Counted from the stretch's first letter, positions 35,020 to 54,731 are shown. The stretch: 64,000 bases of DNA from Deinococcales bacterium (GCA_031414595.1 JANNVX010000098.1:32001-96000); one strand, 5' to 3'. The notes: a model not told the origin generated them from the sequence alone. Made by a program: numbers and translations.

Positions 35020-35044
35020 GCAATCAACCTTGGAGGAAACCATT

Positions 35045-35398: not shown

Positions 35399-35453
35399 AT
35401 CAGCTTTGAGTTATCAGCTTTGGGCTTTGAGGCAACAAAACTTAGGAGTAACA

Positions 35454-35993
35454 ATGTCAACCCTAAAAGACTTATTTGAAAAAGATGTCCAAGAACTCGA
35501 GAACGAGGGAATAGTTTTTGCGACCCTCGAGAAACTGGTGGCTTGGGGACGCAGCAATTCTATGTGGCCCATGACCTTTGGGCTTGCTTGCTGCGCCATT
35601 GAAATGATGGCATCCACCGATGCCCGCAACGACCTTGCACGGTTTGGCTCGGAAGTATTTCGGGCTTCGCCGCGTCAGTCTGATGTTTTAATTGTGGCTG
35701 GGCGTTTAAGTAAAAAAATGGCACCCGTGATGCGCCGAGTGTATGACCAAATGCCCGACCCTAAATGGGTGATTTCAATGGGCGCATGTGCCTCGAGCGG
35801 CGGCATGTTCAACAATTACGCGATTGTCCAGAACGTAGATAGTGTTGTTCCCGTGGATATTTTTGTCCCCGGCTGTCCGCCCCGCCCCGAAGGACTGATT
35901 TACGCCGTGATGCAACTGCAAAAGAAAGTACGCGGCGAAGCCATGGATGATTTTGGTACGCCCCTACCAATGGTGGAAGCATGGACAAGATAA
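35454..35993 (+). CDS. nuoB: NADH-quinone oxidoreductase subunit B
   Basis: [24 protein letters not shown]; Thermus Nqo6-like N-terminus [13 protein letters not shown]. Confidence 0.97.
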
Positions 35994-35999
35994 ATAACC

Positions 36000-36063
36000 G
36001 TAGGGGCGAGGTTGTCTTGACCCTAAACATGCACCTAGCGGGCAGGGTCGCACGCCTCGCCCT
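36000..36063 (+). repeat. GTAG-family REP palindrome with nested insert
   Basis: GTAGGGGCGAGG...CCTCGCCCT between nuoB and nuoC. Confidence 0.85.
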
Positions 36064-36078
36064 CTTTGGAGGACACCC

Positions 36079-36684
36079 ATGAGTTCATTAGTTACCGCCC
36101 TCGAGAAAGCTGGCTTGCGCGAATACCCAATTCTCGAGGGGAAAATCAAAACGGTTGTCGCAGCACTGGACACCTTCAAAGCCTTTTTATTTGAATGTAA
36201 AGCTGTCGGTTTTAGTCTCTGTGCCGATCTCATGGGCGTGGATTACCTCGAGTACACCGAATTTATGCCCGAGCGCTTTGCTGTTATTTATAACTTGTTA
36301 AATGCTAAAAATGGTGAACGGATTCTGGTTAAAGTTTATGTCCCAGATGCTATAAAAATCCCAACCGTGACCGATATTTGGCGCACTGCCGAGTACCATG
36401 AACGCGAAGTGTATGACTTACTGGGGATTGAATTCTCCGACCATCCAGATATGCGTAAAATCCTCACCCCAGAAGATTTAGACGGGCATCCGCTTCGTAA
36501 GGATTTCCCGCTTGGCGAAACGCCAACGCTTTTTCGTGAAGGGCGCTTCTTAGACCCTTCGGCTTTTCGGGCTGGCTTAAGTGGTAAGGATACTGGTTTA
36601 TCGGGTTGGCGCGGTGGGTCACGCATAGACTCGAGCCTGATTCCGAAGTTGCCAACCGCAATTCCAGTATCAAAGGAGAAATGA
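36079..36684 (+). CDS. nuoC: NADH-quinone oxidoreductase subunit C
   Basis: EREVYDLLGIEF..HPDMRKIL, GHPLRKDFPL. Confidence 0.95.
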   Translation: MSSLVTALEKAGLREYPILEGKIKTVVAALDTFKAFLFECKAVGFSLCADLMGVDYLEYTEFMPERFAVIYNLLNAKNGERILVKVYVPDAIKIPTVTDIWRTAEYHEREVYDLLGIEFSDHPDMRKILTPEDLDGHPLRKDFPLGETPTLFREGRFLDPSAFRAGLSGKDTGLSGWRGGSRIDSSLIPKLPTAIPVSKEK

Positions 36685-36687
36685 GTT

Positions 36688-37959
36688 ATGGCAAAAGTCA
36701 AAGAAAAACCAGTCATGCCAAAGCTCGAGACTCGAGCCGAAGTGATTATTCCCCAAGAACGCTCAGAATTAACGGGTGGGTCTGGTTTGCTGCACACCGA
36801 AATCATGCGCCTCAACGTTGGACCGCAACATCCAAGCACCCACGGTGTACTGAGAGTGGTAGTGGACATGGAGGGCGAATACGTCAAGCGGGTCGAACCG
36901 CACATTGGCTATTTGCATACTGGCTTTGAAAAAACCATGGAGAACCGCACCTACGCCCAAAACTTTACTTTTGCACCACGTATGGATTACTTGCACGGCT
37001 TTGGGTATGAGTTAGCCTACGCGCTGCCAGTTGAGCAACTTGTGGGCGCAGAAGTCCCAGACCGCGCTCGAGAAATCCGTGTGCTGCTGGTTGAACTCAA
37101 CCGCATCTCGAGCCACTTGGTTTTTTTAGGCACGGGCTTACTAGATTTAGGCGCTTTAACCCCATTTTTTTATACATTTGTCGAACGCGAAGCGATTTTA
37201 GATATTTTTGAAGCGATTGGCGGACAGCGCTTGCACCAAGGCTACTTTCGGGTTGGCGGCGTTGCCAAAGATACCCCAGACGGCTTTGAGGGCATGGTCA
37301 AAAAATTCCTTGATACGTTTGATGCCAAAGTAGACGAATACGAAAAACTCTTCAAAACTAATCCGATTTTTCTCGAGCGTACTCAGAACACTGGTATCAT
37401 GTCCGAAGCTGTGGCGCTGGATTTAGGCATCACTGGACCAAATCTTCGGGCTTCGGGTGTGGCGCTTGACCACCGCAAAACCACGCCGTATTCGGGTTAC
37501 GAACAATACGACTTTGATGTTCCACTTGGTACACATGGCGATAGCTTTGACCGCTTTGTGGTGCGTGTCCAAGAAATGCGTGAATCGGCAAAAATTTGTC
37601 GCCAAGCACTCTCGAGATTAAAGCCCGGCGCAATCCAAGACCCAAATCGCAAAATCAGCTTGCCGCCCCGCGAAGAACTCGAGACCAGTATGGAAGCTGT
37701 GATTCACCACTTTAAGCTGGTGACAGAAGGTTATCATCCGCCTAAAGGCGAGGCGTATGTGCCAACTGAATCGGCTCGAGGTGAACTGGGGTGTTATATC
37801 GTTTCTGACGGCGGCAGTATGCCCTACCGCATTCATTTCCGCGCCCCAAGCTTTGTCAATTTGCAAGCCTTGCCCGTAATTGGCATTGGTGGATTATTCG
37901 CCGACCTGATTACTGTAATCGCCAGCCTTGACCCCGTGATGGGCGACGTAGACAGGTGA
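36688..37959 (+). CDS. nuoD: NADH-quinone oxidoreductase subunit D
   Basis: [36 protein letters not shown]. Confidence 0.97.
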
Positions 37960-37963
37960 GAAT

Positions 37964-38686
37964 ATGAGTCAAACTGCCGAACAAGAATACATGGAACGAC
38001 TGACCCAAGCAGTCAACAACAGTGTGGATTTTAATCAAGAATTTAAGTCTGACTTACACCAATTCAAACTCGAGCAGTTTTACGAAATGTTTGCTCAAGA
38101 AATTCTGTTTTACAAACCTATTGAACTCTTAAACGGTCAAGTCTGGGGCGAAGGAATTCTCGTTACTTACGACGCTGACGACATGAAAAAACTGCATCAC
38201 TCGAGAATACTGATACCAGACCAGCCTGTCGAACTGATTAACGGACATTTTTTCAAAACACCAATATCCACACAAGCCCAAACCAATGCAGCCATTGATT
38301 TAAGCACCGAAATGCTTAGAGGATTAGGTGACAATGCTATTTCTCGAGGCGGTTATGACATCGAACTTGGTGCAAAATTTGTGGTTTCCCCAGAAATTGC
38401 CATTCTACAAGCCCCTCGGGAACGATACAATCATCGCAACGCCACTCTCGGCGACGTGTACTTATTGGTCGAAGTTCTAGCCGAAAAACCTAAGTATTGG
38501 GATTACAAACTTTCAGCCTATGCTCGAGCTTGCGTACCAGAACTCTGGGTGCTGAATACAAGCACCCAACAACTTGAGATTTATGCAGACTCAGACGGTG
38601 TGGAATTCTTGCATCAAGTCAAGCTCGAAAAAGGACAACCAGCCACACCACTCGAGTTTCCAGATGTGCAAATCAGGTGGTGGTGA
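37964..38686 (+). CDS. Uma2 family endonuclease-like protein (N-terminally extended, degenerate)
   Basis: Two ELLNG/ELING segments, LLVEV, KLSAYARACVPELWVLN. Confidence 0.75.
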   Translation: MSQTAEQEYMERLTQAVNNSVDFNQEFKSDLHQFKLEQFYEMFAQEILFYKPIELLNGQVWGEGILVTYDADDMKKLHHSRILIPDQPVELINGHFFKTPISTQAQTNAAIDLSTEMLRGLGDNAISRGGYDIELGAKFVVSPEIAILQAPRERYNHRNATLGDVYLLVEVLAEKPKYWDYKLSAYARACVPELWVLNTSTQQLEIYADSDGVEFLHQVKLEKGQPATPLEFPDVQIRWW

Positions 38687-39252
38687 TGACCCAAATTTTA
38701 GAACGCCCACAAGACGCTAATTACCCACATCGGTTTAGTGTTCTCGAGTTTGAACGCTTGTTTGAAGCAGGGGTTTTTGGTGAAGAAATTCAAGTTGAAT
38801 TGCTAGACGGAGAAATTTTTGTTATGCCAGAAATGGGAGATGACCACGCCGACAGTCTGACACGACTGACCAAACAACTGATTCGTAAACTCGGTGATTA
38901 CGTCGAGCTTGCCCCACAAATTCCGTTGGATTTACCCGAAGGTGAAACCCGTCCACTGCCCGATTTTATTGTGATTGACATTAAAAAATATGGTCGGCGT
39001 AAACCGATTCCTAGCGATGTGTTCTTCTTAATCGAAATTTCGGATACTACACTGCATAAAGACCGCAACCGCAAAGCCCAAATTTATGCCCGAAACGGGA
39101 TTCTCGAGTATTGGATTGTGAACTTAAAAAACAAGCAACTCGAGGTCTATCGCAACCCAGAAAATGGTGTTTACCCAAAACCACAAATTTTGCAAATCGG
39201 TCAAGCAATTGCGCCCTTGGCATTCCCAGATGTTTTAATTGAGTGGTGGTGA
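38686..39252 (+). CDS. Uma2 family endonuclease
   Basis: VELLDGEI, PLPDF, LIEISDTT, DRNRKAQIYARNGILEYWIVN. Confidence 0.9.
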   Translation: MTQILERPQDANYPHRFSVLEFERLFEAGVFGEEIQVELLDGEIFVMPEMGDDHADSLTRLTKQLIRKLGDYVELAPQIPLDLPEGETRPLPDFIVIDIKKYGRRKPIPSDVFFLIEISDTTLHKDRNRKAQIYARNGILEYWIVNLKNKQLEVYRNPENGVYPKPQILQIGQAIAPLAFPDVLIEWW

Positions 39253-39262
39253 AAGGAGATTT

Positions 39263-39502
39263 ATGAGTGACGACGAAAAGAAATTACTTCATGCGATTCA
39301 AGATTTACACTTTGCTGTCAGGGATTTAAGTCAGGGATTTGCTCCCGCCAGACCTCGAGACGAAAGTGATTTACGTTACCAATCAAATGAATCTTTTGGT
39401 TCTGGGTTTAATTTACTACATAAAGCATTTGAAGTGATAATAAAAAATCAGGAAAAACAAATCGAATTACTCGAGACTATTGCTCGAAATAGTCGTAGAT
39501 AG
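39263..39502 (+). CDS. Hypothetical protein
   Basis: RBS AAGGAG and ATG; 79 aa, coiled-coil-like C-terminus. Confidence 0.55.
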   Translation: MSDDEKKLLHAIQDLHFAVRDLSQGFAPARPRDESDLRYQSNESFGSGFNLLHKAFEVIIKNQEKQIELLETIARNSRR

Positions 39503-39518
39503 TTTTGGAGGTTCAACC

Positions 39519-40100
39519 GTGAGTTTCTTTACCAATCAACAAGCCCTTGTTCAAGACATTCTCTCGAGATACCCAAAAGGACGCGAACGCAGCGCGGTGA
39601 TGCCGCTCCTGCGCGAAGTCCAGAATGCCGAAGGCTATGTCTCGGATGCGGCTTGTGCTGAAATCGCGCAAATCATCGAAAGTACCGCCACCGAAGTCAA
39701 ATCAGTCATGAGCTTCTACAGCACCTACTCGAGCAGCCCGACAGGAAAGTATCACCTTCAAGTCTGCATGACCTTATCCTGTGCGTTGCAAGGTTCTGAC
39801 CAAATGTGGGATTACTTGTGCGAAACCCTTGATATTGGCGTGGGCGATGTTACCCCAGATGGCTTATTCAGCGTCCAGAAAGTCGAATGTCTAGGCTCAT
39901 GTGGCACTGCGCCCCTGATGCAAGTTTCGGATAGCGGTTATTACGAATGCCTGACCAAAAAACGCTTGGATGCCCTGCTTGCTGATTTCAAGGCTCGAGG
40001 CGATGGCAGTATGCCCGAATCGGATACCCAAGCCCCAGTCTTTATTCAAAGAAATGGTGATGTGGTGAGCCAAATCACTGCCGAAGGAGCAAGTTTATGA
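39519..40100 (+). CDS. nuoE: NADH-quinone oxidoreductase subunit E
   Basis: RBS GGAGG, GTG start; VCMTLSC and ECLGSC [2Fe-2S] N1a ligands. Confidence 0.95.
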
Positions 40101-41455
40101 CTTTAGTTGCTGAAGCACCTGTAGCTGAAAAACCAAAAAGCATTACCAGTGGACTCGACCCGCGTTTCAAACCACGATTGTACGAACACGTTGGGCAAAA
40201 TAATTCGTGGACGCTCGAGTACGCCCTGCGTCATGGCGCTTACGAAGGTGCAAAACGTGCCTTGGCTGGAACACCAGAATCAGTCCAAGATGAAGTCAAA
40301 AAATCAGGTTTGCGCGGACGTGGCGGCGCTGGTTTCCCGACGGGCTTAAAGTGGTCATTTATGCCCAAAGAAGATGGCAAACCCCATTATTTGGTCTGCA
40401 ACGCCGATGAATCCGAACCCGGCACGTATAAAGACCGTTACTTGATGGAAGCCGACCCACACCAGTTACTTGAGGGAATGCTTGTGGGAATGCACGCCAT
40501 CCGCGCCAATGTTGGTTACATTTATATTCGCGGCGAGTACATTCTTGGCGCAAATCGCTTAAACGCTGCGATAGCCGAGGCTCGAGCCGCAGGGATTTTT
40601 GGCGAAAATGCGCTTGGTTTTGGTAAAAGTATGGAAGTTTTTGTACATCGCGGGGCTGGGGCATACATTTGCGGTGAAGAAACCGCGTTGATGAATTCAC
40701 TCGAGGGGCTACGAGCCAATCCGCGCCTGAAGCCACCGTTTCCTGCTCAAGCTGGAATTTTTGGAATGCCAAGCACTGTTAATAATGTGGTCAGTATCGC
40801 TTCGGCTGCCCTAATATTGCGCCACGGTGCGGACTGGTTCTCGAGCATGGGGACAGAAAAAAGCAAAGGGAATTTCTTGTTTCATATTTCCGGACCCGTT
40901 AAGCGTCCGGGCGTGTACGAATTGCCACTTGGCACAACTTACCGCGAGATTATTTACACTTGGGGCGGTGGACCAACGGAAAGCATCAAAGCCTTTAACC
41001 CCGGTGGCTCGAGTACCCCGATGCTTCCATTCACTGATGAGATTCTGGACATGCCAGCCGATTACGAAAATTGCGCTGCCAAAGGAACTTTTCTTGGTAC
41101 GGGCGGAATTATCTTGATTCCCCAAAATTGCGATATTGTCAATATGATGTACAACTATGTTCGTTTTTATGGTCACGAATCTTGTGGCAAATGCACCCCA
41201 TGCCGTGAAGGAATTGGTACTTGGATGAATCGTATCTTCCAAAAACTGATTTCTGGTAAAGGCGACCCGAACGATGTAAAAATTCTCGAGGATTTATTTG
41301 GCAACATCAAAGGCAAATCGTTTTGTTTGCTTGCCGATTCGTGCATTATGCCAGTGCAGAGTGCCATGAAACTTTTCCGTGATGAATTTGAATATATTGC
41401 TCAGCATGGTAAACCGATATATACAGGTTACGGCAATCGCTGGAAAGACGAATAG
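40097..41455 (+). CDS. nuoF: NADH-quinone oxidoreductase subunit F
   Basis: [49 protein letters not shown]. Confidence 0.97.
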
Positions 41456-43772: not shown

Positions 43773-44047
43773 GTGAAATGTCTGTGACCATCGAAATTGA
43801 AAAAATCCATGCCAGTGCAATCAGTTTCCCCCGAGATGTGATTGAGGACTCAGAAACTCGAGAATTCAGGATTAAAGTTGTGGGCAACGAATTTGTTATT
43901 TATCCGGCACACATGAAATTCTTTGAAGTTGCCACACCTCAACAACGCGCCAATTTGCTGCTCGAGCGATTAGCGCACAATAAATCCAATCCAGATGCAC
44001 CTCAAATTCCAGATGAAGCTTTACGCCGCGAGAATTTTTACGAATGA
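43769..44047 (+). CDS. Putative antitoxin of the PIN toxin
   Basis: C-terminal APQIPDEALRRENFYE typical of PIN-associated partners; ATGA overlap. Confidence 0.6.
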   Translation: MSEMSVTIEIEKIHASAISFPRDVIEDSETREFRIKVVGNEFVIYPAHMKFFEVATPQQRANLLLERLAHNKSNPDAPQIPDEALRRENFYE

Positions 44048-44496
44048 ATATTTTTTTAGACACCAACATTTTTTTAAGACTGACCGATGAAAACTCGAGT
44101 CAACATGAACTTGTCGTTAAAGCTGTGGCGCAATTACTGGCTCGAGGAGACGAACTTTATTTTGCGCCACAAACAATTGTTGAATTTTGGGCAGTGGCAA
44201 CCAGACCACTACAAGCCAATGGTTTGGGGTTAGATGCCCAAACGATAGAACATAAACGAGAAGAATTTTCTGATGAATATAAAATGCTCGAGGAAACCCC
44301 AGCCTTATATGAAAAGTGGCTCGAGTTGGTCAAGCAACACGCGGTTCAAGGTAAGCAAGTCCACGACACCCGACTTGTGGCACAAATGTTGGTGCATAAT
44401 ATCAATACGATTTTGACAATCAACACGGCGGATTTTAAGCGATTCTCGAACATAACGGCTGTGCATCCAGAGCAAGTGCTAAAAGGTGAAGCATAA
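44044..44496 (+). CDS. vapC: PIN domain (VapC-like) toxin
   Basis: FLDTNIFLR, EFW.VATRP, GKQVHDTRLVA, ILT.N.ADF. Confidence 0.88.
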   Translation: MNIFLDTNIFLRLTDENSSQHELVVKAVAQLLARGDELYFAPQTIVEFWAVATRPLQANGLGLDAQTIEHKREEFSDEYKMLEETPALYEKWLELVKQHAVQGKQVHDTRLVAQMLVHNINTILTINTADFKRFSNITAVHPEQVLKGEA

Positions 44497-44549
44497 AGCC
44501 CAAGCAGAAAGCCAAAAGCCAAAGAGGTGAGTTAATGTCAGTTTTAGAA
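44484..44549 (+). repeat. Cassette-junction direct repeat, family J (copy 1)
   Basis: AAGCATAAAGCCCAAGC--AGAAAGCCAAA...GAGGTGAGTTAATGTCAGTTTTAGA. Confidence 0.8.
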
Positions 44550-44729
44550 ATGATTCGAGAAGTTCCAAAATTAACCCATGCAGAGCAAAGTTTATTGCTG
44601 CTCGAGTTGCAAAAATACTTGCAACCACCAGCAGATTTAAGCCAAATTCCAACCAATGGTATAGCCGAGTTATTCCCGTTCTACGAAGCCATTAACGCCA
44701 ACCATGATTTATCCAGAATTGTAAAATAA
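44535..44729 (+). CDS. Small partner protein of retropepsin module (copy 1)
   Basis: RBS GAGGTG; MSVL start; helical; paralogous to 46893, 52952, 53632. Confidence 0.7.
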   Translation: MSVLEMIREVPKLTHAEQSLLLLELQKYLQPPADLSQIPTNGIAELFPFYEAINANHDLSRIVK

Positions 44730-44737
44730 GGCAACCA

Positions 44738-45142
44738 ATGAAATCTGTAACCTACCCATACTTACCAAATAGACAAAATTCTCTGATGCCGTATCTGCCC
44801 GTTCAACTCGAGCAGCAAGGTCGGGTTATAGAAACTATGGCGTTGGTAGACAGTGGCGCAGTTTCCAGTATTTTGCCATATTCAATGGGACTAGCCCTAG
44901 GATTAGATTGGCAGTCAGCCCAACAAGGTTTAGATGTGATTGGAGCAGTTGTTTCACCTTCAAAAAATGTTCGTGCGGTACTGCATATCCCGCAATTCTC
45001 GGCACTCGAGACGGGGTTTTCTTGGGTTGAAGATGATAATAAGCCGTTAATTCTTGGGCAGAGGATTTTCTTTTATCAGTTCCAAGTTCAGTTTGACGGT
45101 CGGCAACCAAGTTTTACTTTGACAAGGCAGGAACAAGCATGA
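44738..45142 (+). CDS. Retropepsin-like aspartic protease (copy 1)
   Basis: MPY, ALVDSGA, GLALGLDW, PLILGQRIFF. Confidence 0.8.
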   Translation: MKSVTYPYLPNRQNSLMPYLPVQLEQQGRVIETMALVDSGAVSSILPYSMGLALGLDWQSAQQGLDVIGAVVSPSKNVRAVLHIPQFSALETGFSWVEDDNKPLILGQRIFFYQFQVQFDGRQPSFTLTRQEQA

Positions 45143-45187
45143 AGCCCAAGCTCGAGCAGAAAGCCAAAAGGGAAGATACAGATGGGT
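45134..45187 (+). repeat. Cassette-junction direct repeat, family J (copy 2)
   Basis: CAAGCATGAAGCCCAAGCTCGAGCAGAAAGCCAAAAGGGAAGATACAGATGGGT. Confidence 0.85.
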
Positions 45188-45203
45188 TACTCGAGGTCAA
45201 GCC

Positions 45204-46199
45204 ATGATAGATAAATCAGACCGAAATAAAACAATAGAATTATCTGAGGCAGAAAAAATGCTTTACTCAGAACGGTTAAGTCGTTTTGATCAATGTGCAA
45301 CCCAAGCCGATGTACAAAATAAAACCTTAAATCAAGATTTGTTCTCGGTACTCGAGTTTTTACCCACTGGTTTTGTGGATTTGTTGTTTATTGACCCGCC
45401 GTATAATTTAAGTAAAACCTTTAACGAAGTCAGTTTTAAGAAAACCTCGTTTGAAGAGTATGTGATTTGGGTAGACCTTTGGCTGTCCAAGTTGGTGCGA
45501 ACCTTAAAACCAAATGCTTCCGTCTATATCTGCTCGGATTGGCTTTCTTCACCTGCTATTTTTGAAGTTGCAAGACGTTACTTTATTGTCCGTAGTCGAA
45601 TCACTTGGGAACGCGAAAAAGGACGTGGTGCATTGACCAATTGGAAAAATTCATCTGAAGATATTTTGTTTTGTACAGTTTCAGATGAATATACTTTTAA
45701 TGTCGAACAGGTCAAACTCAAGAAAAAAGTGATTGCCCCATACCGCACCGATGATGGAATTCCTAAAGATTGGAGCGAAACCGACGATGGCAATTACAGG
45801 CTGACGCATCCATCTAACCTTTGGACAGACATCACCGTGCCATTCTGGTCAATGCCCGAAAATACTGAGCATCCGACGCAGAAACCCGAGAAACTGCTGG
45901 CTAAAATCATCCTCGCCAGTTCAAATGTTGGCGATATGGTTTTTGACCCATTTTTTGGCTCTGGAACAACCTTGGTGACAGCCAAAAAACTCGAGCGAAA
46001 CTTTTGTGGCGTGGAAATAGACCCATATTATGCTTGTATTTGCCAGAAGCGTCTCGAGATGGCAGAGTTAGACGGTGGCATCCAAGGCTACAGCCAAGGT
46101 GTGTTTTGGGAACGCAATACACTGGCAGAACAAAAATCTGAAGCCCCAAAGCCCAAAAAACGCACTTTGGCTCGAGAGCAACAGGAACAATTCTTATGA
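45204..46199 (+). CDS. Site-specific DNA methyltransferase, beta class (m6A/m4C)
   Basis: IDPPYN, HPTQKPE, FDPFFGSGTT. Confidence 0.92.
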   Translation: MIDKSDRNKTIELSEAEKMLYSERLSRFDQCATQADVQNKTLNQDLFSVLEFLPTGFVDLLFIDPPYNLSKTFNEVSFKKTSFEEYVIWVDLWLSKLVRTLKPNASVYICSDWLSSPAIFEVARRYFIVRSRITWEREKGRGALTNWKNSSEDILFCTVSDEYTFNVEQVKLKKKVIAPYRTDDGIPKDWSETDDGNYRLTHPSNLWTDITVPFWSMPENTEHPTQKPEKLLAKIILASSNVGDMVFDPFFGSGTTLVTAKKLERNFCGVEIDPYYACICQKRLEMAELDGGIQGYSQGVFWERNTLAEQKSEAPKPKKRTLAREQQEQFL

Positions 46200-46837
46200 G
46201 CCAAGTTTTTACCCATGGTTTTGAAACTCGCACCCTCGAGAGGCTGAATGCACTGGCAAAAACCATTCCTGTTTCGATTCTGGGCAGCCCCCGCTCAATT
46301 GGGGATACCATCCAAGATTTAATTGGACAGCACTTTCTCGAGTTAATGGGTAAGGAAATTTGTAAGACATACTCGAGTGAATCAGCACGGCGTTCAATGG
46401 CAGATGTGGCTTTTGAAGATTTTGATGGTAATTTTTATTCGGTGGATATTAAAACCCATAATTTAGGTACAAAATTTAATATGCCAAATTTGACTTCTGT
46501 GGAACGTTTAGCACGGCTTTACGAAAGTGACAAAGATTATTTTTGTGTTCTGCTGATTGCTTATGGTGTCGAAAACTCGAGTATTACTTTTGAAAGCGCT
46601 AAATTTGTGCCGATTGAACATATAGACTGGAATTGTTTAACCATAGGTGCGTTGGGTTGGGGGCAAATTCAAATTGCCAATTCAAACAAGTTTTTAACGA
46701 ATGCCACACAAACCAGAAAAGCATGGATGATTGAACTTTGCGATACGCTACTTGGTTTTTATCCTCGAGAAATTCTCAAAATTAACGAACGAATTGAGCA
46801 TTTTGTAGCCATTCGTCAGAAATGGATGGAGCGTTGA
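46196..46837 (+). CDS. Putative type II restriction endonuclease
   Basis: MADVAF...VDIKT PD-(D/E)xK pattern, FNMPNL, GWGQIQI; ATGA-coupled to the MTase. Confidence 0.65.
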   Translation: MSQVFTHGFETRTLERLNALAKTIPVSILGSPRSIGDTIQDLIGQHFLELMGKEICKTYSSESARRSMADVAFEDFDGNFYSVDIKTHNLGTKFNMPNLTSVERLARLYESDKDYFCVLLIAYGVENSSITFESAKFVPIEHIDWNCLTIGALGWGQIQIANSNKFLTNATQTRKAWMIELCDTLLGFYPREILKINERIEHFVAIRQKWMER

Positions 46838-46845
46838 TATGATGT

Positions 46846-46906
46846 CAAGCATGAAGCCCAAGCTCAAGAAGAAAGCCAAAGAGGTGAGTTAAATGTCAGT
46901 TTTAGA
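46846..46906 (+). repeat. Cassette-junction direct repeat, family J (copy 3)
   Basis: CAAGCATGAAGCCCAAGCTCAAGAAGAAAGCCAAAGAGGTGAGTTAAATGTCAGTTTTAGA. Confidence 0.85.
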
Positions 46907-47105
46907 TTATGTGCAACAAGCTAAAAATTATAGTTTAGACGAACGTCAAGAAATCATTGCCAGTCTCCAAGAACAAATTTTTGAGCAGCGACAAAAAACC
47001 ATGATAAAACCACGAAAAGATGGGGTGTTTGAAATTTGGTCTCCGACTGTAGATGCTGCTTCGATGGAAAAACTTCAAGAACGAGCAAGGCAGCGAAAAC
47101 TGTGA
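46893..47105 (+). CDS. Small partner protein of retropepsin module (copy 2)
   Basis: MSVL start, FEIWSP motif; GTGA overlap with the protease. Confidence 0.72.
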   Translation: MSVLDYVQQAKNYSLDERQEIIASLQEQIFEQRQKTMIKPRKDGVFEIWSPTVDAASMEKLQERARQRKL

Positions 47106-47527
47106 GCCGAATAGCCCGATTTCCGTATGCAGAATCAGCTACCAATGTGCGTATGCCGTATATAGATGTGCTTATTGATTCTGGCGAAGTAGCAGTTCGA
47201 GTCAAAGCTCTACTCGATTCAGGCGCAATGGTCAATGTCATTCCAAAGCAAGTAGGAGAACGGCTAAACTTAAACTGGGAAAAAGGAGTAGATATTGCCC
47301 TAGGCGGTAACTTAGGCAAAGCACCTGCTCGAGCCTTTTATTTGAATTGTACAGTACAGGGTTTAGAAGTGACACAACTAGAACTTAATTGGTCAATGCT
47401 CGAGGATATTCCTGTTATTTTTGGGCAGTTTGATTTTTTCCAGAATTTCGATGTGTGTTTTTCGTACTCAGAAAATGAAATTAGTGTGCGACCTAGGCGA
47501 GTACAACAGAATCAAGGTGAAGCATGA
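47102..47527 (+). CDS. Retropepsin-like aspartic protease (copy 2)
   Basis: MPY, ALLDSGA, GERLNLNW, PVIFGQFDFF..FDVCF. Confidence 0.8.
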   Translation: MSRIARFPYAESATNVRMPYIDVLIDSGEVAVRVKALLDSGAMVNVIPKQVGERLNLNWEKGVDIALGGNLGKAPARAFYLNCTVQGLEVTQLELNWSMLEDIPVIFGQFDFFQNFDVCFSYSENEISVRPRRVQQNQGEA

Positions 47528-47572
47528 AGCCCAAGCTCGAGCAGAAAGCCAAAAGGGAAGACACAGATGGGT
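47514..47572 (+). repeat. Cassette-junction direct repeat, family J (copy 4)
   Basis: AAGGTGAAGCATGAAGCCCAAGCTCGAGCAGAAAGCCAAAAGGGAAGACACAGATGGGT. Confidence 0.85.
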
Positions 47573-47668
47573 GTTGTGTAAGGTGGGAAAAGCCCCTCCA
47601 CAAGTAGATGTACTCAAGAAATTACAAAAATCAGGGAACAGCTCAAACGTTTTCAGAAGGTTAAAATA

Positions 47669-48037
47669 ATGGTTGATAAAATGAGTCAGAACAGAAACGT
47701 AAAAAGTGCATATAGTGCAACTCGCATTTCAATTAATTATCAAACCTATGTGGGCGCTCGATATATCGGTTGTGGGCTGACATTGCATTATCTTCCAGAT
47801 TCAGAATTACAAGTCAGTTGTACAGCAGAATTTCCTGTAAATGACAACTACCGAATTAATGTTTGTAAAGCGATAGAAAAAACTTGTCAAGAAAAGTTGT
47901 TTGTAGGACAATTTATTGTTGAAGAAATAGATTTTCATCCTATCTACTCGAGCCAAAATGCTTTTGAAAACGCCGCTCAACAAGCTGTTTTAGCAATTCT
48001 GGGCTTACTTTCTTTTAAGCCTCTCACAATGGAGTGA
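47669..48037 (+). CDS. Hypothetical protein, possible stand-alone EF-G domain IV / S5-domain-2-like fold
   Basis: IDFHPIYSSQNAFENAAQQA resembles EF-G domain IV YHDVDSSE.AF..AA. Confidence 0.45.
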   Translation: MVDKMSQNRNVKSAYSATRISINYQTYVGARYIGCGLTLHYLPDSELQVSCTAEFPVNDNYRINVCKAIEKTCQEKLFVGQFIVEEIDFHPIYSSQNAFENAAQQAVLAILGLLSFKPLTME

Positions 48038-48039
48038 CT

Positions 48040-50406
48040 ATGCCTAAAGTAATTGTGAATGATCGTCAAATCGAAGTCCCTAATGGTGCATCTGCTTTGG
48101 ATGCGGTTTTCCAAGCAGGTTTCGATGTGCCTTATTTCTGCTCTAACGAGTATCTCTCGCCGATTGGTGCGTGTCGAATGTGCCTTGTCGAAGCTGGCTC
48201 GCCGCGTAAAAATCCCGATGGTTCTTGGATTCTCGAGGATGGTGTTCCAAAACTGTTTTACTTCCCCGGTACAGTCGCAAGCTGCACACTGGCAACTTCC
48301 GAAGGCATGGTCATTAAAACCACCACTGAGGCGGCTGTCAAAGCCCAAGCTGGGATGATGGAATTCACGCTGATTAACCATCCGCTTGATTGCCCCACCT
48401 GCGATAAGGGTGGCGCGTGTGAACTCCAAGACCGAGCTTACGAGTATGGTTACGGCGAAGCGCGTTTTGAATTTACTCGCCGTCATGCCGATAAGCACCA
48501 TGCCCTGTCTGATTTTATTGTGCTGGATAAGGAACGCTGCATTCATTGCAAACGCTGTGTGCGTTACTTCGAGGAAATCCCGGGCGAAGAAGTGCTGGAT
48601 TTCATCGAACGCGGTGGGCATACTTTTATAGATTCGTACCAATCCGAAGACTTGGCGGGCGCAAAACTCGGTAATTTTAGCGGCAATATTAACGACCTCT
48701 GCCCTGTAGGAGCGCTGCTCGATAACGTCTCGAGATTCCGTGGGCGCAACTGGGAATATGACCGCACCCAAACCACCGATATGTCCAACGCCGATGGCTC
48801 GAGTATTTGGGTGGATGCTCGAACGGGGCGAATCGAACGCATTCGCGCCGCTCACAACAAAGAAGTTAATGAAATTTGGATTTCCGACGCACAGCGTTTT
48901 GGGCATGAATGGGTGGATGCCGATGCTCGAGTCCGCACGCCACTGATTCGTAAAAATGGCAAACTCGAGCCAGCCACCTTTGATGAAGCTGTTGAAGTGA
49001 TTGCAAAAGCCAATCTCGAGCCGAGCAAATTAGGTTTGTATACCAGTGCTGACATCACCCTCGAGGAAGGTGTGGCGCTTGAGTCGTTTGCTAAGACCAT
49101 TGCGACCATCAATGTAGACCATTTTCCGCGTTATAACAGCGCTCTGAGTGGTGTTGCTCGAGCCACCTTTACCGACCTTGCCAAAGCGGACGCAATTATC
49201 GTGATTGGTGCAGACTTGTACGAAGAATCTGGCACAGCCTACTTGCGAATCGAGGAGAGCTTGAAGGGTGTTATCACCTCCGACACGCAATTTAATCACG
49301 GTGCGCCTTTGGCAGATTTGCGTCTCAAAGAACGCATGGACAGAAAGCGCGGTAAACTGGCGGTCTTTGCACCAATTCCAGTGCAACAAATGAGCCACGC
49401 GGGAATCTCGAGCCTGTATGCAGTAGGTGCTGAACTCGAGCTTTTGGCGCAGATTAACCAAGCCAAATCGGGTAATGACTCGAGCAACGCCCAAGCCAAC
49501 GCTGCTGGCAAACTGCTCTCGAGTGCCAAAAACCCTGTGATTGTGCTGGGTAGCTTTGCGCTTGCCTCAGATGCCGAAAAAGTGTTGGCAGCCGCTAAGA
49601 AACTCGGTGGAAAAATCATGCCGATTCCAGCAGGTGCAAACGGCGCTGGACTCGAGACTTTAGAACTTGTACCAACCAAAAATGGGCGCAGTTTTGGGCA
49701 GTGGGACGGCTTAAAAGGCTTGTTCGTTTCGGGTAGTGCCATGACCAAGCGTCCAAAATCGCTCGAGATGTTGGTGGTTCACACCCATACCCTGACAGGC
49801 GCGGCACTCGAGGCGAATGTGGTGCTGCCAGCCCTGACTGCCTACGAGAAACGCGGCACAACCATGAATCTCGAGGGGCGCTTGTTGCCTTTGGCTGGGG
49901 CAGCCGTGGATGGTGGGCAAGGCGTGGACATGATTGGTGCGTTGCAAGTCTTATCCGATGCCATGAGTGCTAAACTCGAGATTCGTGGAACGCGCAGCGC
50001 CCAACGAATCCTGCAAGATAAATTTGGTCTCGAGATGGACAAAATTGCCGTTGAAGGTGCGTTTCCTGTGAAAACTGTCTCGAGTCGTTCAGCGCCAATT
50101 GTGCGCTCCACCACGGGCGAAACCGTACTGCTTGTGCCAAGAATGTGGTCTGAAAACATGCTCTCGAGCCAGCGCATCCGTGAAAGTGTCGGCGCAGATT
50201 ACTTAACTGTCAACTCGAGTGATGCCCAAAAAATGGGTGTGCGGGATGGCTTTACTTTAGAGCTAGAAGTCAACGGCAAACCTCGAGCCGTGACCGTTCG
50301 GATAGATGATGCGGTGTCTGCGCCAACGCTGCCCGCTTTGAATTCAGATTTGTCTGGGGCGCTTTCGAGTGTCAAAATAGCGGTCATGGCAGGAGGGGAT
50401 GATTAA
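48040..50406 (+). CDS. nuoG: NADH-quinone oxidoreductase subunit G
   Basis: [51 protein letters not shown]. Confidence 0.96.
50367..50405 (+). repeat. nuoG 3' end, duplicated at 51081-51119
   Basis: 36/39 identity with 51081-51119. Confidence 0.9.
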
Positions 50407-51048
50407 ATGAAAAAATGGTTACTGATACTGGTTTTACCCCTCTTTGCAGCTTGTTCAACTTTTGGTGGCGGCGAGCCTTGGGCGCGACAATTGCTTGCTC
50501 CGTCAGATAACACTTACCGTCAAGTCTGTGACTACACCCTGAGCAATCAACTTACTTCTAATCAACTCAGTAATTTTGGGGCAGCCGTCATTAAAACCGA
50601 GCAACTGGGGGATTTTAATGTTTTTAGTTCCACTTTCTTAGTGGGATTCACTTGCGGTATCCTCGAGCCACTTGCCAGAATCAATCCATCAGGAAAAGCC
50701 CAGTTGCTGCAAAGTAAAGAATTGGCGGATTTATCTCGCTTAGGGCGTTTTGTTGTTTCTACTCGAGTTCGGGTTAAAAACACCAGTCTGGAGAATAAAA
50801 AACTCACCCTAACTTTAGAAGATGAAAAGGGCGAAACCGTGCTGCAATTAAAACCAGAACCATTTATTGCGGGAACAGACGAAGAACCTCGCATTAGTTT
50901 TGCCCTGATTCCAGCCGATTACACCCCCACGCAATTACAAGCCTTTGAGAAAGTCCAAGCCATGTCTTTCAAAATTCAATTTGGAGAAAGCGAAGCCACT
51001 TTTCGTTTAACCCCCAAGGATTTTGGGGCTTTTCAGGTCAGTAAATAA
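50407..51048 (+). CDS. Hypothetical lipoprotein
   Basis: MKKWLLILVLPLFAAC lipobox. Confidence 0.7.
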   Translation: MKKWLLILVLPLFAACSTFGGGEPWARQLLAPSDNTYRQVCDYTLSNQLTSNQLSNFGAAVIKTEQLGDFNVFSSTFLVGFTCGILEPLARINPSGKAQLLQSKELADLSRLGRFVVSTRVRVKNTSLENKKLTLTLEDEKGETVLQLKPEPFIAGTDEEPRISFALIPADYTPTQLQAFEKVQAMSFKIQFGESEATFRLTPKDFGAFQVSK

Positions 51049-51080
51049 ATTACGAGGTTCGGATTTTCGCGGGATACTTT

Positions 51081-51119
51081 GAGTGTCAAAATAGCAGTGA
51101 TGGCAGGAGGCGATGATTA
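51081..51119 (+). repeat. Displaced duplicate of nuoG 3' end
   Basis: Encodes the same [12 protein letters not shown]; all 3 differences are synonymous third positions. Confidence 0.9.
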
Positions 51120-51122
51120 GGT

Positions 51123-51308
51123 ATGACAATGAAAATGGTGTACTGGGAAGATGACGGTTGGCTGGTTGGTCGTTTAATTGATTATCCAAATGTGGCAACT
51201 CAAGCCGAAACCCTTGAAGAACTCGAGGAGAACATTAAGGATGCCTTTGAACTGATGTATCTCGAGGATGTACCAGCCAATCACAAGTTTAAGGAAGTTA
51301 CCATTTGA
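51123..51308 (+). CDS. hicB: HicB-like antitoxin (short)
   Basis: YWEDDGWLVG...YPNVATQAETLEELEENIKDA. Confidence 0.85.
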   Translation: MTMKMVYWEDDGWLVGRLIDYPNVATQAETLEELEENIKDAFELMYLEDVPANHKFKEVTI

Positions 51309-51496
51309 AGCACCGTGACTTGATTCGCTTACTTGTTCAAAATGGTTGTTTTCTAAAACGAAACGGCAAAAAGCACGATTTGTACATCAATCCAGCAACA
51401 GGCGCATCATCGGCAGTTCCACGACATTCGGAAATCAAAGAGACAATGGCACGAATCATTCTGAAAGAATTAAGTATTGAAATAAAAAACAATTAG
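51305..51496 (+). CDS. hicA: HicA toxin
   Basis: KHRDLIRLL..NGC...R.GKKHDLY.NP...VPRHSEI. Confidence 0.88.
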   Translation: MKHRDLIRLLVQNGCFLKRNGKKHDLYINPATGASSAVPRHSEIKETMARIILKELSIEIKNN

Positions 51497-51539
51497 GTGA
51501 TGCTCGAGATTCAAACGTTTTGCTAAAAGAGGTGAAGAA

Positions 51540-51761
51540 GTGAATCCAAATCCAATACGTCCGCCGCAGCAATTTCTTGTAGACCATCATGGAATAAAAA
51601 CCCATGTTATTTTGCCGCTCGAGGAATACGAGGAAATGATTGACCAGCTTCTTGATGCAAGGGATGCGGTCGAAATGCCAAAATTAGTCGTAGAAGCTCG
51701 AGCCAATAGTGAGAGGATAACGATTGAAGAACTTCGCAAACAATATGGACTCGAGCCATAA
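51540..51761 (+). CDS. Orphan antitoxin-like protein
   Basis: QFLVDHHG.KTHVILPLEEYEEM...DARD...ERITIEEL pattern of RelE-partner antitoxins. Confidence 0.55.
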   Translation: MNPNPIRPPQQFLVDHHGIKTHVILPLEEYEEMIDQLLDARDAVEMPKLVVEARANSERITIEELRKQYGLEP

Positions 51762-51801
51762 GAGAAAAAATGAAGTCTATGAACGCTAATAAGGAGTACA
51801 A

Positions 51802-52926
51802 ATGCTGATTGAAATTTTAATTGTTTTACTAAAAGCCGTTGGTGTAGCCCTTGGGCTACTCACCACTTTCGCCTACATGACCCTAATCGAACGCCGTTTG
51901 CTTGGGCGTTTCCAAATGCGTCACGGTCCAAATCGGGTTGGTGGTCCGCTGGGTTTGGCTCAACCACTTGCCGATGCCATCAAAAGCATTTTCAAAGAGG
52001 ATGTCAACATCACCCTAGCCGATAAGTTCGTCTATTGGATTGCGCCACTTATCGCCATCACCATGTCCTTAACCGCTTTCGGAGCAATTCCAGCCGGTCC
52101 TGCTGGTAGTTTATTCGGCACTGACCCTTGGGTGTTTAACCTCGATATTGGCTTGCTGTTTATTCTTGGAACAACCAGCATGGGTGTCTACGGCATTTTT
52201 CTGGGTGGTTGGGCTTCGGGCAGCAAATACCCGCTTTTGGGTGGGCTTCGTGCCAGCGCCCAAGTGATTAGTTACGAACTCGGTATGGGGCTTAGTGTCT
52301 TGGGGCTACTGATTCTAGTGGGCAGCATGAACTTGCTCGAGATTGTCAAATGGCAAACCGAAAATGGCTGGTTAATTCTGTTTCAGTGTGTGGCTTTCAT
52401 GACTTTTTTTGTTTCCGCCTTTGCCGAAACCAACCGCTCACCGTTTGACCTTCCAGAAGCCGAACAAGAATTGGTGGCAGGGTTTCTAACCGAATACTCG
52501 AGCATCAAATGGGCATTGTTTCAAATGGCGGAGTACGTGGCAATGATTACGGCTTCGGCAGTCATGGCAACCTTGTTCTTTGGTGGCTACAAAGGACCAA
52601 ATCTCGAGATAGCTGGGTTTAACATTGGCAATATTCCATTTATTTGGTTGTACGCTAAAATTGGTGTGTTTTTGTTTGTGTTTATCTGGGTTCGGGCAAC
52701 GCTCCCTCGGATGAGGTACGACAAGCTGATGCAATTCGGTTGGAAGTTCTTGTTTCCTGTGGCACTAGGTAACACGCTTGTGGCAGCAGGTTTCAGAGGC
52801 TACTTCCCCAAAGATACCCCTTGGATTTTAGGTGGGATTAGCTTGGTTGCTCTCATTATTATTTTTGCTGTGACCTCGAGAAACCCTGTGCGACCCGCGC
52901 CTGCTCGAGCCAATGCTGGCGACTGA
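51802..52926 (+). CDS. nuoH: NADH-quinone oxidoreductase subunit H
   Basis: ERRLL...[44 protein letters not shown]. Confidence 0.97.
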
Positions 52927-52959
52927 TAGAATGATTTTGGAGGTGAATGAAATGAGTGT
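52901..52959 (+). repeat. nuoH 3'-end/junction repeat, family H (copy 1)
   Basis: 54/59 identical to 53581-53639; partial third copy at 54249-54278; contains CTCGAG, TGaTAGAAT and GGAGG. Confidence 0.9.
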
Positions 52960-53164
52960 GATGCAAATGGTTGAAAGTGTAAGGGAGTTATCCATAGCCG
53001 AAATTGAACAATTACAAGATGCGCTCGAGAAAGAACGTTTGATGCAACTCAGTAAAATAGCTGCTAAACGTTGGGCTGGTAAGACTTTTGAATTGTGTTT
53101 CCCCTCGAGCAAAGATGTACCTGTCCACCCTTTTCAAGTTTTTCTCGAGAATCAAAAACCATGA
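52952..53164 (+). CDS. Small partner protein of retropepsin module (copy 3)
   Basis: RBS GGAGGTG, MSV start, FELCFP motif; ATGA overlap. Confidence 0.7.
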   Translation: MSVMQMVESVRELSIAEIEQLQDALEKERLMQLSKIAAKRWAGKTFELCFPSSKDVPVHPFQVFLENQKP

Positions 53165-53577
53165 ATTACGTTAAATTTCCGTATCAACCAATCAAAGATG
53201 ATTTATTCATGCCTTATGCGTGGGTGCGTTTGTCCTTTGGTAATACTTTTTGGGATGAATGGGCTTTGGTTGATAGTGGTGCGGAAATCAATGTTATTCC
53301 GTTTAGTGTTGGAGTAAAATTGGGTCTTGATTGGAATACATCTGAAGATGGTCCAACAATTGGTGGTAGTGCTTCTGGTGCTACGAAAACTGTTGAACTT
53401 ACTGTGACTATCGGTTCTTTTACAAATGTGTCAATGAGTTTTTGTTGGCTCAGTCATGATAATGTTAGGGTTTTACTTGGAGAACAAGATTTTTTTGAGA
53501 ATTTTGCTGTTTATTTTGATTTACAAAACAAAGAATTTGCTTTGTTTCAATATGCAAAGAAACAGGATGTTGAGTAG
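53161..53577 (+). CDS. Retropepsin-like aspartic protease (copy 3)
   Basis: MPY, ALVDSGA, GVKLGLDW, VLLGEQDFF. Confidence 0.8.
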   Translation: MNYVKFPYQPIKDDLFMPYAWVRLSFGNTFWDEWALVDSGAEINVIPFSVGVKLGLDWNTSEDGPTIGGSASGATKTVELTVTIGSFTNVSMSFCWLSHDNVRVLLGEQDFFENFAVYFDLQNKEFALFQYAKKQDVE

Positions 53578-53580
53578 CCT

Positions 53581-53639
53581 CTGCTCGAGCTAAAGCTGGT
53601 AGCTGATAGAATGATTTTGGAGGTGAATGAAATGAGTGT
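53581..53639 (+). repeat. Family H junction repeat (copy 2)
   Basis: Exactly 680 bp downstream of copy 1. Confidence 0.9.
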
Positions 53640-53853
53640 CGGACAAATAATTACACAACTTAAAAGTCTCTCGAGAAATGATTTGGTCTTAATCGTGAAT
53701 GAGGCACAGAAAACACTTCATGAACTTGACCCGATTGCATCCAATCATCTTGACTTGTCCAAAATGCCAAAGAACCCTGAAATTTGGTCGCCTTGGGATG
53801 AATACCAAGCCGCTGATGATATGGAAAGATTACTCGCTGAGGGAAAATTGTGA
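53632..53853 (+). CDS. Small partner protein of retropepsin module (copy 4)
   Basis: MSV start, EIWSPWDEYQAA motif; GTGA overlap. Confidence 0.72.
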   Translation: MSVGQIITQLKSLSRNDLVLIVNEAQKTLHELDPIASNHLDLSKMPKNPEIWSPWDEYQAADDMERLLAEGKL

Positions 53854-54272
53854 GTGATGTAGAGCGTTTTTCTTACATAATTAAGGGCGAAATGGGTAAA
53901 ATGCCGATTATTCCTATTCGTTTCTTAGATAATAATAAAGCCATTGAAGAACTAGCGCTTTTAGATTCTGGTGCAGCCGTGAGTATTTTACCGTACAGAA
54001 TGGGTTTAGCATTAAAGCAGGATTGGAATAATCCAAAATTATATGAGGCTAGGCTAGGTGGCGTGTTTCGGCATTTAACTGGAAAATTTGTGAAAGTGTC
54101 ATTGCAAATTGGGCAACTCGAGCCTCGAGATGTTGCATTCGTGTGGATGGAATCTGAAAATGTGCCGCTTATTCTTGGTAATGGTAATTTCTTTCAGATT
54201 TTTGATGTGTGTTTTTCACGCTTAAACAATGAAATTTCGGTGCGTTTAGCTCGAGCCAAAGCTGGTAGCTGA
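53850..54272 (+). CDS. Retropepsin-like aspartic protease (copy 4)
   Basis: MP, ALLDSGA, GLALKQDW, PLILGNGNFF..FDVCF. Confidence 0.8.
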   Translation: MSDVERFSYIIKGEMGKMPIIPIRFLDNNKAIEELALLDSGAAVSILPYRMGLALKQDWNNPKLYEARLGGVFRHLTGKFVKVSLQIGQLEPRDVAFVWMESENVPLILGNGNFFQIFDVCFSRLNNEISVRLARAKAGS

Positions 54273-54278
54273 TAGAAT
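54249..54278 (+). repeat. Family H junction repeat (copy 3, partial)
   Basis: GCTCGAGCCAAAGCTGGTAGCTGATAGAAT. Confidence 0.85.
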
Positions 54279-54296
54279 AAAATTGGGGGAGTATTT

Positions 54297-54731
54297 ATGC
54301 CAAAAAGTAAAAATCCGTATAGCAAAGAGGTAAAAGAGAAGGCAATAAGAAAAGTTGCAGAAGGTTTGTCTTACGCTGAAGTAGGACGCGAAATGGGGAT
54401 TCCATATTCGACTATTAGTAATTGGTCTAAGGAAGGTGGTATTGAAAGTAAACATAGTAATGGCAAGGGGCAGGCTTTGTACAATATGATGCGGGTCTGT
54501 ACAACCTTGTTTCAAACAATAAGTCAAATCCATAGCTATGCTTATGGCACTTTTCAAAACAGTAGGCACTATAAACATCTACGAGACGCTGCAAAAAAGG
54601 GCTTACTTGAAAGAAGAATAGATGGATTAGATGAGTCATTTAAATTAACAAAACTTGGCAAAGAATGGTTAAAAGCTAATGAAAATACTTTTGAAGAAAA
54701 ATATCAAGAATTAATTTTAAAGCGAGCGTAA
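54297..54731 (+). CDS. HTH protein (IS3 OrfA-like N-terminal HTH + winged-helix-like C-terminus)
   Basis: YSKEVKEKAI...SYAEVGREMGIPYSTISNW; KKGLLE...FKLTKLGKEWL; AT-rich. Confidence 0.6.
   Translation: MPKSKNPYSKEVKEKAIRKVAEGLSYAEVGREMGIPYSTISNWSKEGGIESKHSNGKGQALYNMMRVCTTLFQTISQIHSYAYGTFQNSRHYKHLRDAAKKGLLERRIDGLDESFKLTKLGKEWLKANENTFEEKYQELILKRA

Follow-up and report, generated by a model that had tools for sequence, protein, structure and literature searches.

Gene pairs for a small partner protein and a putative retropepsin-like protease, related to the candidate PDC-M52, lie in the complex I operon of a Deinococcales bacterium

PDC-M52 is a two-gene phage defense candidate of the PADLOC collection, made up of a gene for a small protein (A model, 86 positions) followed by a gene for a protease of ∼139 aa (B model). 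Its layout resembles that of type II toxin-antitoxin (TA) systems with Phd/YefM antitoxins, in which a small upstream gene overlaps a slightly larger downstream gene and the upstream protein joins a folded N-terminal module to a flexible C-terminal region. We know of no characterized type II toxin that is an aspartic protease. Among proteases, a single-lobe fold with a D-S/T-G-A motif and a C-terminal Gly motif is found in Rickettsia APRc (5c9f/5c9b), the soluble domain of a membrane protein, in Ddi1, which carries ubiquitin-like domains, and in the retroviral proteases. Here, we analyzed a 64,000-nucleotide stretch of a Deinococcales bacterium (GCA_031414595.1, JANNVX010000098.1:32001-96000; positions 1-64000, hereafter the window; source assembly of 4.49 Mb) that carries four pairs of genes, each encoding a small partner protein and a putative retropepsin-like protease, inside the operon for complex I. 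We lean toward reading each pair as a type II TA-like or abortive-infection module with a protease effector.

The four pairs of open reading frames (ORFs) all lie on the + strand, and the small gene always comes first:

44535-44729, +: partner 1, 64 aa, MSV start, ELFPF motif, predicted helical (ORF call, alignment with partners 2-4).
44738-45142, +: protease 1, 134 aa, ATG start, ALVDSGA (PDC-M52B, E 4.6e-22; PF13975 and PF13650 sub-threshold).
46893-47105, +: partner 2, 70 aa, MSV start, EIWSP motif (ORF call, alignment).
47102-47527, +: protease 2, 141 aa, GTG start, ALLDSGA (PDC-M52B, E 6.6e-28; fold model).
52952-53164, +: partner 3, 70 aa, MSV start, ELCFP motif, directly 3' of nuoH (ORF call, alignment).
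53161-53577, +: protease 3, 138 aa, ATG start, ATGA overlap with the partner gene (PDC-M52B, E 1.3e-18; PF13650 above cut-off).
53632-53853, +: partner 4, 73 aa, MSV start, EIWSP motif (ORF call, alignment).
53850-54272, +: protease 4, 140 aa, GTG start, final codons and stop within a repeat copy of the nuoH 3' end (PDC-M52B, E 1.2e-26).

A first-pass annotation of the same DNA had proposed these four pairs, and they are borne out at these positions by the ORFs, by the PDC-M52B matches, and by the joint recurrence of the two genes in other genomes. All the motifs that it quoted were found (ELFP, EIWSP, ELCFP, and EIWSP in the partners; AL[VL]DSGA and [IL][LF]G..FF in the proteases), as was the coupling of three pairs by overlapping stop and start codons, which amounts to 4 nt in pairs 2 to 4; pair 1 has an 8-nt gap. 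Alignments of the four copies gave low pairwise identities, 23-36% for the proteases and 16-31% for the small proteins. A profile search of the whole assembly found exactly four copies of each gene.

The four proteases share 22 invariant alignment columns, including ALxDSGA and the G..FF block. The motif reads ALVDSGA or ALLDSGA in 4/4 window proteases, confirming that the active-site motif is intact in all copies despite their divergence, and a hydrophobic-hydrophobic-Gly motif near the C terminus is also present, as in retropepsins. Only protease 3 passed the gathering threshold of PF13650 (29.6 bits versus 24.3). The remaining matches to PF13975 and PF13650 stayed below their cut-offs (17-24.5 bits), and none of the eight pair proteins matched NCBIfam. 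An AlphaFold model of protease 2, built with a 16-row alignment as input, reached a pLDDT of 93.2. Its top Foldseek match was APRc of Rickettsia conorii (5c9f; E 5.3e-6, TM 0.70/0.74), followed by Ddi1 and then by the HIV, FIV, and HTLV proteases, for a total of 140 chains at E≤0.001. Identity to these matches was just 13-23%, and a profile search against PDB sequences gave E values of 0.02-0.1. Across the family, D[ST]G was retained in 146 of the 150 best representatives. Together, the predicted fold, the catalytic motif, and the weak Pfam matches support the assignment of the larger protein to the clan AA retropepsin-like aspartic proteases, in line with the first-pass annotation. By analogy, the protease probably acts as a homodimer. 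It differs from APRc, Ddi1, and the retroviral enzymes in being a soluble, stand-alone protein of ∼135 aa with a dedicated partner gene.

With PDC-M52, the window pairs share the gene order and the protease: PDC-M52B (PDLC04692) was matched by 4/4 window proteases with the E values listed above, and they also matched PDLC04693, another PDC-M52B model. The difference lies in the window partners, which do not match the A model itself. Cyanobacterial partners of the A type are nonetheless homologous to them by profile. Among 15 relatives' partners scanned, 12 of helical type matched PDC-M52A (E 1e-46 to 0.015), and the other three, two with different N termini and one without the Pro motif, had no match. 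A profile of the Deinococcales partners compared with a profile of the cyanobacterial helical-type partners gave a 97.5% probability match (E 7.8e-12, 66 columns). Because the protease matches PDC-M52B and the partner profile matches PDC-M52A-type cyanobacterial partners, the window modules are, as judged from their sequences, diverged members of the PDC-M52 family, the partner being linked via the cyanobacterial profile. Thus, the proposal that the pairs form a new system was not supported, since the module falls within a PADLOC candidate. The name "PDC-M52" was absent from the full-text literature searched. What is new here is the tie between the Deinococcales partners and PDC-M52A, the motif and modularity of the partner, the decay forms, and the arrangement of the pairs as cassettes in the nuo operon.

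Conservation of the two genes as a pair in other genomes had been set beforehand as a test able to refute the module. We found 18 further protease genes in Deinococcales metagenome-assembled genomes of the window's own family. A partner detected by hidden Markov model (HMM) lay directly upstream in 15/18, and inspection added two more, a diverged MSV protein and a protein headed by a Phd/YefM domain, for 17/18; the one exception is a catalytically dead orphan, described below. In these relatives, the partner and protease genes mostly overlap by 4 nt of the ATGA type. Outside its own phylum, the family occurs in cyanobacteria and Anaerolineae (related-loci search, 4-row alignment, 7 loci). In 39 cyanobacterial and Anaerolineae loci, an upstream small ORF was found at 40/40 full-length protease genes, and the motif of these partners was W[ST]P in 34/40 and x[ST]P in 38/40. 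The two genes are therefore strongly co-conserved elsewhere, at 17/18 and 40/40 protease genes, with three phyla represented.

The family is widespread and unevenly distributed. In an even sample of 201 genomes from the class of one cyanobacterial relative, the protease was detected in 73 (E≤1e-8); some of these have as many as 6 copies, and many fragments are interrupted by stop codons. Within the window's order, the protease was present in 11 of 18 genomes of its own family and in 0 of 22 from four sister families. A profile search of 1.84 billion representatives returned 2578 proteins at E≤1e-3; tightening the cut-off to E≤1e-10 left 499, and E≤1e-30 left 39. Almost all are single-domain proteins of ∼110-150 aa. 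Public annotation names the relatives "retroviral-like aspartic protease" or "hypothetical protein." Such a patchy, multi-copy distribution with fragments is typical of TA or defense genes. We also scanned 108 flanking ORFs at the 39 cyanobacterial and Anaerolineae loci and found Pfam families of TA or defense genes within 1.5 kb at ∼14-16 of these loci. These neighbors include ParE, DUF3368/UPF0175, Abi_C, Fic, DUF4435, SIR2, and DUF5615/DUF433, and further HicB, Gp49 with HTH_3, Mrr, BrnT/BrnA, and TIR_2. The other flanking ORFs were housekeeping genes, and none of the 108 was ndh or nuo.

As read from the predicted fold of a natural fusion (see below), the partner is laid out as a helical hairpin, a poorly ordered linker ending in an aromatic-Ser/Thr-Pro motif, and an amphipathic helix. 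Its N terminus is the part that varies between lineages; the C-terminal motif and helix are conserved. The aromatic residue directly precedes Pro in partners 1 and 3, and the motif is mostly aromatic-Ser/Thr-Pro elsewhere. In one Deinococcales relative, a Phd/YefM domain (PF02604, 33.3 bits versus a cut-off of 29.8) precedes the same motif and helix. RHH-like and DUF2281-like N termini were also noted in partners, by our own reading or as sub-threshold matches (E 0.052). Against PDB sequences, the partner profile came nearest to the N-terminal dimerization hairpin of L7/L12, at a borderline E of 0.0065-0.011 over residues 1-26, which hints that the hairpin may be a dimerization module rather than a DNA binder. 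Separately, the nearest atlas cluster of the partner carries the automatic name "Programmed cell death antitoxin YdcD," with a score of 0.86, under the 0.9 level, and we take it as a lead only.

A natural partner-protease fusion, P0118, was found as a 187-aa metagenome protein whose protease part is without the first ∼15 residues. It is a singleton on a 1.1-kb contig and the other 119 of the best 120 relatives are 103-152 aa long, which makes it weak as Rosetta-stone evidence; it may be a deletion or an assembly artifact. In its predicted fold, helices span residues 4-11, 15-30, and 50-66, and the motif segment (31-48) is predicted disordered (pLDDT<50), with no docking seen. Since this is a monomer model and the partner part was without aligned homologues, the fold is neutral on binding.

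The partner motif resembles retropepsin cleavage sites: the direct aromatic-Pro of partners 1 and 3 is of this kind, many cyanobacterial partners have Tyr-Pro ahead of the Trp, and the predicted disorder of the segment would leave it accessible. Such a site, together with the Phd/YefM DNA-binding-type domain of one partner, would suit a repressor-protease switch, for which ImmR/ImmA and DdrO/IrrE are models. The partner would then be a regulator cleaved at the aromatic-(Ser)-Pro by its cognate protease on a signal, and the protease would transduce that signal instead of acting as a toxin. We consider this unlikely, since most partners have no recognized DNA-binding domain, the module is mostly solitary, its neighbors changing from locus to locus without any conserved cargo to regulate, and a dead orphan protease, described below, is easier to explain by relief from toxicity than by the loss of a switch. 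The same motif, being a conserved site followed by a conserved amphipathic helix in a small protein whose gene is tightly coupled in translation to that of the protease, could also belong to a precursor that the protease cuts to free an active C-terminal helical peptide, either a signal or a toxin. Precursor processing seems to us quite improbable. The pair has no conserved neighbor gene for an exporter, a modification enzyme, or a receptor, and the N terminus is variable and can even be an antitoxin domain, the opposite of a conserved leader peptide.

Decayed modules were found in two genomes of the window's genus. The first is an orphan protease gene at L019:1495-1905 (-) in G003, which lacks a partner ORF and whose motif, LLATGA, is without the catalytic Asp. 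It adjoins a homologue of the window's first restriction-modification (RM) methyltransferase, upstream of nuoG. The second is a partner-only remnant (L084 364-639, in G001) of 91 aa with an MSV start and a degenerate motif, without a protease gene; it directly follows nuoH and is itself followed by a 190-aa membrane ORF and nuoI. These states, a dead protease left alone and a partner left alone, fit a toxic effector. Across 17 pairs, divergence of the partners correlated with that of the proteases (Mantel r 0.717, 0/2000 permutations as high), which indicates that the pairs are inherited as units and nothing more.

The preferred reading, a TA-like or abortive-infection module, would work as follows. 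The downstream gene would encode the effector, the stand-alone retropepsin-like protease of ∼135 aa, and the upstream gene its cognate small regulator, with a swappable N-terminal helical hairpin, a flexible linker bearing the motif, and an amphipathic helix. The motif and helix would bind the protease, either in the substrate cleft or at the interface of the dimer, and hold it inactive. Should the partner disappear, be degraded, or be displaced, for example through stress, phage infection, or loss of the whole module, the protease would be free to cleave cellular or phage proteins, and growth arrest or abortive infection would result. An analogy for the inhibitory step is IA3, a mostly unstructured inhibitor of ∼70 aa that becomes folded when it occupies the cleft of yeast aspartic proteinase A. 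The likeness is to the supposed mechanism only: IA3 has no sequence relation to the partners, its target is a two-lobed pepsin, and it is eukaryotic.

Several observations agree with this reading. Two small, adjacent, co-directional, and translationally coupled genes conserved as a pair are a type II TA trait, and the likeness to TA systems with Phd/YefM antitoxins extends to the folded N-terminal module and flexible C-terminal region of the partner, the one genuine Phd/YefM partner, and the multi-copy, patchy occurrence with orphan and degraded forms. The difference is that the window's downstream protein, the putative toxin, is an aspartic protease. Of the TA or defense role proposed in the first-pass annotation, the TA-like architecture stood, with the Phd/YefM partner of one relative and the decayed forms beside it; the function of the protease as a toxin is still something that we infer.

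Other observations weigh on the opposite side. Binding, inhibition, toxicity, targets, and an anti-phage effect are all inferred, and the co-inheritance measured by the Mantel test says nothing on physical interaction. A recognized antitoxin domain occurs in only one partner of ∼60 pairs, and most partners are a helical hairpin only, without a recognized DNA-binding family. None of the four window partners matched PDC-M52A (PDLC04691) even at E≤10. The PDC set itself comprises 145 guilt-by-embedding candidates, which their authors call untested (bioRxiv 10.1101/2024.01.29.577857). No relative was found in the viral contigs searched. Finally, the module has kept its nuoH-nuoI position across several genera, something not usually expected of a purely selfish element and possibly a sign of a role for the host.

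The position in question is within the complex I operon nuoA-N (35030-61646), inside which all four pairs lie, a point absent from the first-pass annotation. The operon is interrupted at four gene junctions, and every inserted gene is co-directional with nuo. The PIN, HicAB, and RM genes that had been named as company of the pairs were recovered by library scans of the window ORFs, as a PIN gene (44044-44496), a HicB-like ORF (51123-51308), HicA (51305-51496), and two RM gene pairs. The operon reads as follows:

35030-37959: nuoA, nuoB, nuoC, and nuoD.
37964-39252: two Uma2 genes.
39480-41455: nuoE and nuoF.
nuoF-nuoG insert, in order: RM pair 1, a 75-aa ORF, VapB-like/PIN genes, and pair 1; then a methyltransferase gene with a 213-aa ORF, pair 2, and a 122-aa ORF.
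46196-46837: ORF ahead of partner 2, in that insert.
47669-48037: the 122-aa ORF, overlapping the nuoG start.
48034-50406: nuoG.
50407-51048: 213-aa ORF after nuoG, with a lipoprotein-like N terminus (our reading) and no family match.
51123-51308 and 51305-51496: HicB-like gene and HicA gene, between nuoG and nuoH.
51540-51761: orphan Phd/YefM-like ORF just upstream of nuoH (PF02604, E 7.6e-4, sub-threshold).
51802-52926: nuoH.
nuoH-nuoI insert: pair 3, pair 4, and a helix-turn-helix (HTH) gene at 54297-54731, followed by nuoI through nuoN.

The setting recurs in the relatives: 8 of their 18 protease genes are placed between nuoH and nuoI, 4 are placed between nuoF and nuoG, and the remaining 6 have no nuo gene within the flank retrieved. 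Those at nuo junctions are all co-directional with nuo, and the nuoH-nuoI position is shared by genera whose NuoH proteins are only 72-77% identical. From this one could suppose that, in this Deinococcales family, the pair helps to mature a Nuo subunit or to control its quality. We give this supposition very little credence. The absence of ndh and nuo genes from the 108 neighbor ORFs of the 39 cyanobacterial and Anaerolineae loci stands against it, as does the variable content of the nuoH-nuoI junction among relatives: the two genes abut in G010, a 111-aa membrane ORF separates them in G013, G006 has the HTH gene only, and G001 has the partner remnant described above. In a genome of the same genus, NuoH is 96.5% identical, compared with 53% for the cassette protease and 37% for the partner. 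Moreover, other junctions hold RM, VapBC, HicAB, and Uma2 genes, which makes the nuo operon look like a place where cassettes of many kinds can land.

Some single ORFs of the operon and its relatives deserve mention. For the 122-aa ORF ahead of nuoG, NCBIfam gave only a sub-threshold match (E 0.0025), to a Tli1a-family immunity protein; G003 has a homologue of 35% identity in the same place. The orphan Phd/YefM-like ORF at 51540-51761 is not followed by a toxin gene and is 86% conserved in a same-genus relative (L038). At locus L023 of G011, a second partner-like ORF confined to the N-terminal part (2101-2331, -; HMM E 3e-7, profile positions 1-48) lies in the order nuoF, PIN, partner-like ORF, full partner, protease, nuoG. 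Thus, the arrangement of PIN followed by the pair is kept in another genus.

The pairs are cassettes, and at their borders lies duplicated gene-junction sequence in the form of local direct repeats. Two repeat families, alpha and beta, delimit them:

44477-44518, +: alpha repeat, end of the PIN gene, ahead of partner 1.
45135-45187, +: alpha repeat, end of protease 1, ahead of the second methyltransferase gene.
46835-46899, +: alpha repeat, after the ORF at 46196-46837, forming the partner 2 leader.
47508-47572, +: alpha repeat, end of protease 2, sharing 98% identity with the copy at 45135.
52901-52968, +: beta repeat, reference copy, comprising the nuoH 3' end, the leader, and the ribosome-binding site (RBS) of partner 3.
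53581-53648, +: beta repeat, copy 2, after protease 3, forming the leader of partner 4, 87% identical to the reference.
54247-54314, +: beta repeat, copy 3, end of protease 4 and leader of the HTH gene 54297-54731, 62% identical to the reference.

The 87% identity of beta copy 2 extends over 68 nt, with 32 nt identical, and covers the last ∼25 nt of nuoH. The same duplication pattern was found away from the protease cassettes: the 3' end of nuoG with its RBS (50364-50405) is repeated at 90% at 51078-51119, after the ORF 50407-51048 and just ahead of the HicB-like gene. Exact-pattern searches located the junction repeats nowhere else in the genome. In two relatives of different genera, the cassette is immediately followed by a duplicate of that genome's own nuoH 3' end. 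The cassettes were probably placed or stacked at nuo junctions by recombination on duplicated junction sequence. Contigs from four DNA runs, possibly those of the source samples, are interrupted at the junction repeats. In three runs, contigs join across the first Uma2 gene (37957-38651), with 36-38 nt on the shorter side, and one run has a weak join (22 nt) across the second RM pair (45172-46879), between two alpha copies. These joins hint at variants in the population in which a cassette is present or absent. Contig depth was low over 52850-53483 in 2/4 DNA runs, with no joining contig there.

Integron cassette arrays and integration at gene 3' ends offer a parallel, as they too are promoter-poor, co-directional, and stacked behind a host gene, and a copy of the same short sequence likewise delimits each window cassette. 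The difference is that the window repeats are copies of the local gene junction. No integrase gene or attC-like element was noticed in the window's ORF and repeat listings, in which no dedicated search for them was made. Consensus scans showed no excess of promoter-like sites (20 versus 23.8 in shuffled sequence) or terminator-like sites (12 versus 14.5). A broader proposition joins the two parts of this work: stand-alone retropepsin-like proteases would form an uncharacterized class of TA or abortive-infection effectors, held by a pseudo-substrate-like aromatic-Ser/Thr-Pro motif and helix, and in one Deinococcales family they would, together with RM, VapBC, HicAB, and Uma2 genes, have colonized the nuo junctions as co-directional cassettes, each delimited by a duplicate of the junction, in an integrase-less, recombination-driven array that uses the transcription and RBSs of the operon. 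We put this forward tentatively, as a possibility that we doubt more than we favor.

If the protease is indeed a toxin or defense effector, its chemistry would be one not seen among known TA toxins, and the partner would be the source of a natural, genetically encoded motif that inhibits enzymes of the retropepsin type. The full-text literature searched contained no paper pairing retropepsin or aspartyl-protease terms with TA terms; a search for retropepsins with phage defense gave nothing relevant among the matches listed, and the Pfam family names led only to eukaryotic or viral papers among the matches listed. With a conserved motif, a catalytic Asp, and four diverged pairs in one genome, specificity and insulation can be tested directly. 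As the family is not rare (499 clusters at E≤1e-10; 73/201 genomes), the result would annotate many "hypothetical" genes. It is also unusual to find accessory genes housed, as variable cassettes at duplicated junctions, between the genes of an essential respiratory operon.

The base composition of the cassettes bears on how long they have been there. The palindrome CTCGAG occurs 352 times in the window, ∼1 per 180 bp, compared with 7.8 expected from shuffles, a genome-wide hyper-abundance that is reminiscent of cyanobacterial HIP1. The G+C content is lower in the cassettes (0.41) than in the nuo genes (0.50), and the density of CTCGAG is similar in both (5.5/kb and 6.0/kb, respectively). This similarity despite the lower G+C content points to cassettes that have long been resident in the lineage or have been exchanged among close kin.

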